Assembly: GCA_036272395.1 (NCBI GenBank)
Contig: DATAYT010000216.1
Coordinates: 1-58,151 of the forward strand
Origin: Xanthobacteraceae bacterium
GTDB lineage: Bacteria; Pseudomonadota; Alphaproteobacteria; Rhizobiales; Xanthobacteraceae
Direction: 5' to 3'
DNA length: 58,151 bases
Position numbers and translations under genes: made by a program. Of this stretch, positions 9,087 to 11,161 are shown in pieces. Under the pieces are notes generated by a model. The model worked only from the letters and a program-made list of their open reading frames with translations. It had not been told where the DNA came from and ran no database searches. Every line of letters starts with the position of its first letter. Within the stretch, counting starts at the first letter, position 1.

Positions 9087-9184
9087 CATCATTTCCCCCT
9101 CGCGATTTTGCTGATCGCACCGTGAGTGACGAAAAGCTAATGCGCACGCACGCCATGTTAGTGACGGTTGAATGCCTTCAATAA

Positions 9185-9198
9185 TGAGAATTTTTTCA
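9185..9198. promoter_or_regulatory. Imperfect palindrome TGAGAATTTTTTCA upstream of P1 (counterpart of the 9518-9530 site)
   Basis: Same relative position as the perfect palindrome upstream of P2. It lies inside the conserved duplicated upstream block. Confidence 0.3.
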
Positions 9199-9208
9199 AT
9201 CAGAGACG

Positions 9209-9238
9209 CCGATTATCACTCCGCCGCCAGTCGCACTT
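9209..9238 (-). repeat. Duplicated copy of the pckA 3-prime end (pseudo-tail encoding EVRLAAE-stop)
   Basis: 25 of 30 nt are identical to 9541-9570. On the minus strand it reads GAA GTG CGA CTG GCG GCG GAG TGA, against GAG GTG CGG CTG GCA GCG GAG TAA in the real pckA. Confidence 0.85.
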
Positions 9239-9450
9239 CAAAACTCGAACCCTCCTAACGAATAACAGAAGGAATTGCCGCACCAGGCTCCAAAGTTAAT
9301 CCAGTTAAGGTCTGTCGGATCAGGTCCGGAGGATTTCGAGACCGTCAGAGAGCCCGAAGGTGGAGGCGATAGAGATCCCCGTGTCCCGCCGGCGACGTAA
9401 TCGGTTTCTTCGTCGGTAAGACCGCGCGCCGCTTCCATCCAGGTTGTCAT
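9238..9450 (-). CDS. Double-glycine-leader peptide P2 (microcin/bacteriocin- or RiPP-precursor-like)
   Basis: MTTWMEAARGLTDEETDYVAGG|TRGSLSPPPSGSLTVSKSSGPDPTDLNWINFGAWCGNSFCYSLGGFEF. GAGGGGAG SD lies 7 nt before ATG 9450. The longer ORF-track start at 9531 lies inside the upstream palindrome and lacks an SD. Confidence 0.65.
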   Translation of the reverse strand: MTTWMEAARGLTDEETDYVAGGTRGSLSPPPSGSLTVSKSSGPDPTDLNWINFGAWCGNSFCYSLGGFEF

Positions 9451-9517
9451 GAAAATTCTCCCCTCTTCTGAGGGTCGAATCGTAACTGCTTGGCCGCTAA
9501 ATGCTAATGCCTCAAAA

Positions 9518-9530
9518 TGAGAAATTCTCA
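9518..9530. promoter_or_regulatory. Perfect 6-1-6 palindrome TGAGAAATTCTCA upstream of P2 (candidate operator/promoter element)
   Basis: Read directly from the sequence. It lies about 70 nt upstream of the P2 start and just downstream of the pckA stop. It is conserved in degenerate form upstream of P1. Confidence 0.35.
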
Positions 9531-9547
9531 ACTATCCAGGCCGATTT

Positions 9548-11161
9548 TTACTCCGCTGCCAGCCGCACCTCCGGCGCGGCGTCGCGCACCTCGGCGTCGA
9601 CGTGCTTCTCGTATTTGGTGAAATTGTTCTGGAACATGCCGACGAGCTTGCGCGCGGTGGCGTCGAATCCGGCTTTGTCCTTCCAGGTCTTCATCGGGTA
9701 GAGCAGATGCGGCTCGACGCCCGGCACCGATGTCGGCACCGCGAAGCCGAAATACGGATCGGTGCGGTAGCTCGCATTTTTCAGTGAGCCGTCAAGCGCG
9801 CCAGTCACGAGCGCCCGTGTCGCCTTGATCGGCATGCGCCGGCCGACGCCGTAAATGCCGCCGGTCCAGCCGGAATTGACCAGCCAGCAATCGACGTCGT
9901 GCTTCTTGATCATGTCGCGCAACAGGTTGCCGTATTCGGCGGGCGGCCGCGGCAAGAATGGCGCGGCAAAGCAGGTCGAGAATTCCGGCTCGACGCCCAC
10001 CAAGCCTTTTTCCGTGCCGGCGACCTTGGCGGTGTAACCGGAAAGGAAATGGTACATCGCCTGCGCCGGAGTGAGCTTGGCGATCGGAGGCATCACACCG
10101 AACGCGTCGGCAGTCAAAAAGATGATGTTCTTCGGTTGTCCCGCGCAGCCGCTGCGCGAGGCAAGCGGCATGAATTCGATCGGATAGGCGGAACGGGTAT
10201 TTTCAGTTCGCTTGTCGCTCTCGAAATCACAGACGCGGGTGTCCGAATCGAAAATGACATTTTCCAGCACCGCGCCGAAGCGGTTGGTCGCTGCGTAAAT
10301 CTCCGGCTCGGCTTCATCGGATAGATTGATGCATTTGGCGTAGCAGCCGCCTTCGAAATTGAAGACACCCTCCTCGCTCCAGCCATGCTCGTCGTCGCCG
10401 ATTAGCGTGCGGTTCGGATCGGCCGACAGCGTCGTCTTGCCGGTACCCGACAGACCGAAAAACAGGGCCACATCGCCGACTTTGCCGACATTGGCCGAAC
10501 AGTGCATCGGCATCACGCCTTGCGCCGGCAGATAGAAGTTGAGCGTGGTAAACACCGATTTTTTCATCTCGCCGGCATAGGACGAGTTGCCGATCAGGAT
10601 GATTTTCTTGGTGAAGTCGATGGCGATGACCGTATCGCTGCGCACGCCGTGGCGCGTCGGGTCGGCCTTAAAGCTTGGCAAATCGACGATGGTCAGGTCC
10701 GGAACGAAGTCGGCCAGTTCGAAAATATTGGGTCGGATCAGCAATTGGCGAATGAACAAAGAATGCCAGGCAAGCTCGGTGAAGACGCGCGTTCTTATCC
10801 GGTATTTCGCATTGGCGCCGCCATAGAGGTCCTGCGCGTATAAGGTCTTGCCGCGCGCATGCGCGATCATGTCGTCGTAGAGCAGCTGGAAATTGGCCTG
10901 GCTGAGTTTCCGGTTGCCGCCCCACCACACCGTGTGTTCGGTAAGCGCGTCGACGACAACGTGTTTGTCCTTGGGGCTGCGACCGGTATGCACGCCAGTC
11001 TCGGCGCAGAAGGCGCCGCCCTGCACGAGCGCGCCTTCGCCATTTCTGATCGCGTGTTCCACCAAAACGGTGTCAGGCAAATTCCAATGAACGCCGGCGA
11101 GATTCTTGAAACCGAACTTATCTGCGCCGTGCCCGGCGTTCCTCACACCCGTTTCCACCAC
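9548..11161 (-). CDS. pckA: Phosphoenolpyruvate carboxykinase (ATP)
   Basis: 537 aa, with the kinase-1a motif [11 protein letters not shown] and full-length similarity to ATP-dependent PckA. Confidence 0.97.

Follow-up and report, generated by a model that had tools for sequence, protein, structure and literature searches.

Tandem segmental duplication through unequal or illegitimate recombination can leave behind a relic of the end of a flanking gene. Furthermore, multi-copy arrays of precursor genes for bacteriocins or for ribosomally synthesized and post-translationally modified peptides (RiPPs), such as those of the prochlorosin type, combine conserved leaders with variable cores. A locus that resembles both kinds of system lies between the ATP-dependent phosphoenolpyruvate (PEP) carboxykinase gene pckA and a class II aldolase/adducin-type gene of a Xanthobacteraceae bacterium (GenBank assembly GCA_036272395.1). 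At this locus two small peptide genes, termed P2 and P1, follow pckA, and a second copy of the last codons of pckA stands between them. The peptides also recall class II microcins, whose systems have five components, namely a precursor with a GG or GA signal, an immunity protein, a C39 peptidase-containing ATP-binding cassette transporter (PCAT), an MFP (membrane fusion protein) and TolC (PMC9746304). All positions below are those of the window, which comprises positions 1 to 58,151 of contig DATAYT010000216.1, and the cassette formed by P2, P1 and their upstream regions reads on its minus strand.

The cassette shares several characteristics with tandem segmental duplications. It is a head-to-tail repeat with an intact upstream gene, a relic of the 3′ end of that gene marks the joint together with a 2 nt microhomology, the flanking repeats allow later loss or expansion, and the copies show concerted evolution. 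It departs from the usual case in that the P1 and P2 units differ from each other as much as units of different species do, in that at least three relic junctions occur within the same 0.3–1 kb spacer among relatives, and in that an unrelated peptide gene can sit behind the repeated promoter (L062; loci of relatives bear numbers beginning with L). We consider it likely, with a probability of roughly 0.7, that the cassette is a true head-to-tail repeat made up of old, separately conserved lineages at a recombination-prone spot, and not a fresh copy whose cores are racing apart.

The true tail of pckA (9571-9548, copy 1 of the repeat) encodes EVRLAAE followed by TAA. The pseudo-tail at the duplication junction (9239-9216) encodes the same seven residues followed by TGA. 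These stretches are identical at 20 of 24 bases, and the differences consist of three synonymous third positions and the change in stop codon, just as the preliminary description had stated; our recount of its 30 nt match (9209-9238 versus 9541-9570) also returned 25 identities. The best local alignment between 8820-9240 and 9238-9600 places 9170-9239 against 9505-9571 with a score of 52, about 15 standard deviations above that of 300 shuffles (mean 18.6, standard deviation 2.2, maximum 28). A direct-repeat search revealed a 47 nt repeat with a spacing of 332 (tail and palindrome) and a leader repeat with a spacing of 367, two periods that differ because of insertions and deletions in the 5′ untranslated region (UTR). 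The P2 stop codon TGA (9240-9238) had been described as abutting the pseudo-tail. The contact is real, and it is closer than mere abutment, for the stop codon shares 2 nt with the first pseudo-tail codon, GAA (9239-9237).

The two units are collinear through the tail, a 13 nt palindrome, the 5′ UTR, the Shine-Dalgarno sequence and the leader as far as the sequence TRGSxSPP, and are without similarity beyond it. Specifically, a MAFFT alignment gives 20/24 identities (83%) in the tail, 24/36 from the stop codon to the end of the palindrome, 37/61 plus 31 gap columns in the remaining 5′ UTR, 39/66 in the leader, 18/24 in TRGSxSPP and 43/113 (38%, approximately the level of chance) in the core. 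No alignment between the P1 and P2 cores was returned by BLASTP. The earlier account of a similarity that passes through the upstream block, the Shine-Dalgarno sequence and the leader and then collapses in the core is thus borne out.

Each peptide gene is preceded by a predicted promoter/operator module. Copy 1 (9505-9547) carries a perfect 13 nt palindrome, TGAGAAATTCTCA, at 9518-9530, and copy 2 (9170-9215) carries an imperfect one, TGAGAATTTTTTCA, at 9185-9198. The palindrome, TGAGAA-N-TTCTCA, is located about 20 nt past the real or pseudo stop codon, and it is kept 3′ of pckA in L035, L036, L039, L040, L062, L063, L058 and L007. In most metagenome and RNA-library contigs the T run of copy 2 (A when read on the coding strand) is shortened by 1 nt, which restores the 13 nt spacing. 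A strong Shine-Dalgarno sequence (GAGGGG) is found at both genes: as GAGGGGAG in the P2 5′ UTR (9451-9504), which is about 34 nt shorter than its P1 counterpart, and as GAGGGGG in the P1 5′ UTR (9093-9169). P2 (9238-9450) encodes 70 amino acids, with a leader ending in ...LTDEETDYVAGG, then TRGSLSPP and an aromatic core containing Cys-x5-Cys. P1 (8877-9092) encodes 71 amino acids with a leader ending in ...LTGQEIEYVGGG; its likely start is the second ATG (9089), which yields a 70-amino-acid product. In a second strain-level length polymorphism, besides that of the T run, an RNA-library contig (run X15) lacks one of the three ATG codons that open P1 (9084-9095).

The stretch from the pseudo-tail to the start of P1, including the P1 5′ UTR, is collinear with the stretch from the real tail to the peptide ATG in single-copy relatives. 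It aligns end to end with the corresponding real-tail stretches of L036, L039 and L040, and by inspection the pseudo-tail/P1 unit also resembles the real-tail unit of L062. In the P2 unit, whose gene begins 97 nt after the end of pckA, about 34 nt of the tail-to-start stretch are deleted. The collinearity with single-copy relatives shows that the P1 unit with its pseudo-tail is the original resident, displaced from pckA. Consistent with this view, the real tails of L036 and L040 differ from the pseudo-tail of the window at only 1 of 24 positions, and the real tail of the window carries three derived changes (GAG, GCA and TAA), or three of the four differences between real and pseudo tail. With these loci as outgroups, the suggestion that the differences accumulated in the functional pckA copy holds.

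In their 5′ UTR and leader regions the P1 and P2 units are 51% identical, and each is 50–60% identical to the units of other species. A maximum-likelihood tree of 13 units separates them into an alpha group (P2 of the window and of L035, L036-PB, L041, L040 and L069) and a beta group (P1 of the window and of L035, L062, L063, L058, L039 and L036-PA) with a support of 95/94. Forcing all P1- and P2-type units into one clade costs 8.2 log-likelihood units (approximately unbiased [AU] test, p = 0.043); an earlier tree of nine units gave a support of 89/92 and an AU p-value of 0.097. The AU rejection counts as weak evidence, given how short the alignment is and that the group was named only once a first tree had been seen. 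Some loci hold alpha units only (L040, L041, L069) and others beta units only (L039, L062, L063, L058). These patterns suggest, on a weak test, that the P1 and P2 units represent two old lineages. The junction is common to the window and L035, and the event that created the two-unit layout must therefore predate the split of these two lineages.

The similarity of the tails is a poor guide to the age of this event. The 8 nt that follow the stop codon are the same at both copies within each genome and different between genomes: AAATCGGC and TAATCGGC in the window, CGAGCGGC and CGAGCAGC in L035, AAAGCGGC and CAAGCGGC in L063. They differ even between the window and L035 despite the common junction, and in L062 45 nt are identical between the copies. 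This within-genome agreement indicates that short-patch gene conversion probably acts on the repeats, and because of such conversion the tails provide no clock for the duplication. The pseudo-tail itself is identical at all 24 positions between the window and L035, whereas their real tails show four differences, at synonymous positions or in the stop codon. The lack of any change in 24 nt, compared with about 14% in the flanks, has p ~ 0.02–0.03 by a simple binomial estimate and may reflect either chance or constraint. The folding of RNA from the real and pseudo tails gives z-scores near 0, so the conservation of the pseudo-tail has no structural reason. A scan for sigma-70 promoters and terminators found a single weak promoter-like match at 9241-9212 (the P2 stop, the pseudo-tail and the next four bases) that is not meaningfully above shuffles.

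A pair of paralogues alike in the leader and wholly different in the core is also what prochlorosin-type arrays would present, and the preliminary description proposed that regulatory and leader parts stayed conserved while the cores diverged quickly. Among orthologues the opposite was found. The ratio of nonsynonymous to synonymous substitution rates (omega) for P1 is about 0.27–0.46 overall and 0.4–0.6 in the leader, compared with 0.03–0.07 in the C-terminal 30 codons (versus L035, L062 and L063). For P2, comparison of the window with L035 gives 0.2 overall and 0.06 in the core. The C-terminal core of P1 is therefore the most conserved part among orthologues and is under stronger purifying selection than the leader, and P1-type cores hardly vary among lineages with diverged leaders. 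Since purifying selection keeps each core, the cassette is predicted to encode two distinct mature peptides and not a hypervariable core. Unlike prochlorosin-type arrays, in which cores vary, this locus has cores conserved among orthologues and leaders that evolve faster than cores, has no modifying enzyme nearby and contains only one to two copies.

These data bear directly on the possibility that a single unit of pckA tail, promoter and peptide was duplicated in place recently, with the leader and regulatory parts kept and the cores diverging under diversifying selection. Such an event would account for the gradient of identity from 83% in the tail to 38% in the core, for a pseudo-tail that is almost undecayed (23/24 relative to outgroup real tails) and for the same Phe-stop sequence, TTTTGA, at the ends of both genes, and the nine-unit AU test did not reject a common clade. 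It should also make the copies each other's closest relatives, which they are not, a rejection that is weak given the short alignment: their 5′ UTR and leader are no closer to each other than to those of other species, and the 13-unit tree splits them. Moreover, a neutral 5′ UTR is not expected to diverge far faster than a neutral pseudo-tail, and the low omega values of the cores of both peptides are contrary to diversifying selection. We regard this explanation as unlikely, and a recent in-place copy followed by runaway divergence of the cores is the least supported timing. The earlier interpretation thus stands with respect to the head-to-tail repeat and its pckA relic, and lacks support with respect to conserved leaders and fast-diverging cores.

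Comparison of the spacer in related genomes, a check that the earlier account had proposed, revealed single, decayed and multi-copy states. The single-peptide state occurs in L040/L052 (genome G082; 312 nt spacer) and in L069, and likewise, by gene table only, on contig P0019. One peptide accompanied by a canonical, glycine-rich double-glycine peptide on the opposite strand is found in L039/L051/L055 and in L041. A decayed remnant is present in L007 (genome G006; 179 nt spacer), where the palindrome, the Shine-Dalgarno sequence and ATG-ACA-GCG are kept and are followed by out-of-register MTASSRLH-stop; this arrangement indicates loss of the cassette by internal deletion. Two peptides with a pseudo-tail are found in the window and in L035/L054; in the latter, P2 has been cut short by the loss of about 37 nt. 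L036/L037 carry two peptide genes 75 nt apart that lack a pseudo-tail and have the lineage order reversed. In L063 and L058 an opposite-strand GG peptide lies between the real pckA and a pseudo-tail unit, with 12 and about 6 pseudo-codons, respectively. Finally, in L062 a P1-type gene directly follows the real pckA tail; there, an antisense pseudo-aldolase tail (AGRQMQDA-stop) is fused to a pseudo-pckA tail of about 11 codons, and the junction is followed by a 122 nt copy of the module (88% identity) and then by a different GG-type peptide gene. Because at least three different junctions exist among relatives, duplication that captures the end of pckA is recurrent at this spacer. In members of the genus that lack synteny with the aldolase gene, pckA is followed by an ordinary hairpin terminator.

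The arrangement in L062 also raises the possibility that only a short module (the pckA tail plus palindrome, about 70–120 nt) was copied ahead of a pre-existing second peptide gene, giving this gene its own promoter. Its 122 nt module stands ahead of two unrelated peptide genes, the L036 genes with no module between them demonstrate that an operon-like, module-free state exists, and identity within the window falls off in steps past the palindrome. We nevertheless judge this route improbable. The collinearity of the pseudo-tail unit with single-copy loci, from the tail to the start of P1, shows that the pseudo-tail is part of the original context and no later insertion, and the pseudo-aldolase tail of L062 suggests that the whole spacer was duplicated and its cargo then replaced. 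Furthermore, no transposase, integrase or terminal repeats were found in or near the pckA–aldolase spacer, and the genome itself holds no convincing additional copy of the module.

That the match is due to chance, or to an artefact of metagenome assembly such as a collapsed or chimeric repeat, is extremely improbable: the genome is indeed a metagenome-assembled one in 314 contigs, but the alignment score lies far above those of shuffles, the architecture recurs unchanged in over 24 independent contigs of various samples as well as in contigs of RNA libraries, and the junction is orthologous in L035, a relative that differs by 13–14% across the P1 and P2 units. Specifically, the identical P2 protein is encoded on at least 24 soil contigs from JGI and ENA with the order pckA, P2, P1, aldolase, TctC, and three studies supply RNA-library contigs that cover the cassette, among them one of 832 nt that reaches across 8821-9656. 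In the parts they cover, the RNA-library contigs exhibit no joints or deletion forms. Because the two-unit layout is present in these independent metagenome and RNA-library contigs, it is not an artefact of assembly.

The two-peptide cassette was probably generated by unequal or illegitimate recombination in the pckA–aldolase spacer. Its left breakpoint was situated 21 nt inside pckA, leaving the relic EVRLAAE-stop, and its right breakpoint at the final Phe-stop (TTTTGA) of the peptide gene; a 2 nt GA microhomology is all that can be seen at the joint. The P1 unit is the original one and the P2 unit the one that now adjoins functional pckA. With regard to timing, an old in-place duplication may have occurred well before the species diverged and been followed by differential loss, or the array may have been put together by unequal crossover of divergent alleles, through a single crossover within pckA plus an illegitimate joint at the Phe-stop. 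A maximum chi-square scan indicates that the nearest relative of pckA changes about 125 nt before its stop codon (p = 0.006–0.018 in a post hoc test), a mosaic breakpoint that would suit such a crossover without proving it. The present similarity of tail and promoter is probably due to the prior coding constraint on pckA, to palindromic promoter/operator function and to short-patch gene conversion.

Several points weigh against this history. The alpha/beta tree is built on only about 185 columns and has a long P2 branch, and the AU test is borderline, with a test group that was named after the tree had been seen. Gene conversion is deduced from only three to four linked substitutions. The pckA mosaic test was made post hoc, and its signal may stem from recombination within the comparison genomes; the RNA-library contigs may contain DNA. 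In addition, a contig of a close relative (JGI 3300005332), which encodes P0003 as a 43-amino-acid call between pckA and the aldolase gene, seems to carry a P2-type gene alone in a 388 nt spacer.

The peptides resemble class II microcins and double-glycine bacteriocins in several respects. Like these, they are precursors of about 60–70 amino acids, and their acidic leader shows a double-glycine-like pattern (L at -12, E at -8, V at -4, then GG or GA at -2/-1) that all family members have. Cys pairs, a hydrophobic aromatic C-terminal core and the presence of several peptides at one locus are further likenesses, and the same spacer in relatives holds a peptide that passes the TIGR01847 model. 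In contrast to class II microcins, P1 and P2 have a conserved TRGSxSPP(L)NPP block after the leader. The C-terminal part beyond it is lineage-specific and aromatic, usually with a Cys pair. Scans of P1 and P2 with Pfam and NCBIfam yielded no usable match, and the leader models TIGR01847, PF10439 and PF03047 reported neither peptide; the family is thus without a model. Nor is there an immunity candidate: between pckA and the aldolase gene there is no further conserved or hydrophobic open reading frame (ORF), and the neighbouring genes are metabolic or transport genes. The C39 peptidase domain (PF03412) is absent from all four carrier genomes (G000, G070, G082 and G165; 81–98% complete), although 54 of the 176 genomes from the genus contain it and the controls are positive. 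A language model placed GG bacteriocins and pheromones as the nearest neighbours (score 0.87), a result that serves only as a lead. A lasso-peptide reading, prompted by Thr at -2 and Gly at 1, was set aside on inspection because Asp or Glu is lacking at core positions 7–9. Our literature search yielded nothing on double-glycine peptides at the pckA–aldolase locus in Xanthobacteraceae or Bradyrhizobium.

Judging from these sequence features, P1 and P2 are probably small peptides, secreted and akin to bacteriocins or signals, with a leader of the double-glycine type and a common palindromic operator, and their export would proceed without a C39 peptidase transporter. Because both a C39 peptidase and an immunity gene in the spacer are lacking, we call them double-glycine-like and not microcins. 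A more speculative reading, which we offer tentatively, is that the spacer serves this uncultured Xanthobacteraceae clade as a dedicated cassette hotspot, in which a portable module of pckA tail and palindromic promoter is repeatedly duplicated, is homogenized through gene conversion and anchors swaps of cargo, giving birth and death of lineage-restricted peptides whose processing or export without C39 would follow a route undescribed for such leaders.

The peptide family is narrowly distributed. Of 176 species genomes in the genus, 4 carry it; a search of 300 genomes of 62 other genera of Xanthobacteraceae did not find it, and in metagenomes it comprises about 20 protein clusters; every member with a readable context is located in the pckA–aldolase spacer. 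When the whole cassette was used as a DNA query against 40 relatives, the 3′ end of pckA alone was matched, and tblastn of those loci gave noise. A profile search of genome contigs recovered two loci, both already known, and a profile scan of metagenomes did not recover the P0003 contig. Elsewhere in its own genome (G000:C170:6306-6434, L002), P2 has a weak match (E = 0.011, 45% identity) with two TGA interruptions that is either a relic or noise. With P1 as the query, phmmer matched five stretches of a 3986-amino-acid library protein, P0006 (E = 1.2e-7, 29% identity), probably owing to Ser/Pro-rich low-complexity sequence.

A second, unrelated family of glycine-rich hydrophobic peptides with canonical double-glycine leaders (MNETLRELTDSELQAVSGG...) occupies the same spacer in relatives, usually on the opposite strand (L039:1143-1316, plus; L041:1153-1338, minus; L063:1054-1221, minus; L058:959-1126, minus; L062:2000-2079, plus). 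The L039 representative scores above the TIGR01847 cut-off, and by inspection the canonical GG peptides of L041 and L039 have a related palindrome upstream, which suggests that a common regulator may act on both families. In L035, a 17 nt motif bearing the palindrome (GAGAAATTCTCATTATT) is tandemly doubled upstream of P1 (L035:1225-1265). A palindrome search of the genome itself returned additional matches only within coding sequences or at a contig end without a nearby peptide gene, and no regulon was deduced. By inspection, the half-site spacing seems not to fit the consensus sequences of ICE-, Fur- or FNR-type palindromes.

Two genes border the cassette. The ORF list places pckA, of 537 amino acids, at 9548-11161 on the minus strand with its TAA stop at 9550-9548, and PF01293 is matched by the identical gene in metagenome contigs. 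The aldolase/adducin-type gene (8042-8812, plus strand; PF00596 on an orthologue) is convergent with the cassette and forms its right border. No hairpin terminator is present between pckA and P2 (9451-9547), and cassette-free members of the genus (L009-L011) have a clear GC-rich hairpin and T run after pckA. Given an RNA-library contig that bridges the 3′ end of pckA, P2 and P1, co-transcription of the three genes by read-through is possible. On the upstream side of pckA, 11440-15281 contains a HugZ-like gene of the CREG/PNPOx-DUF2470 kind together with a response regulator/kinase pair.

The process at work here is a known and ordinary kind of genome change, and the peptide family is unannotated. 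The family deserves to be flagged as a narrowly distributed one that combines a double-glycine-like leader with hosts that lack the expected C39 exporter. Two cautions also follow from the locus: a duplication cannot be dated from the likeness between copies of a regulatory module, and paralogues that share a leader and differ in the core do not thereby have fast-evolving cores. More broadly, the cassette provides a base-pair-resolution case of growth and shrinkage in a small-peptide locus. When a duplication has to bring the promoter with it, the end of the housekeeping gene upstream comes along, and the relics then become the repeats through which further gain, loss and conversion take place.

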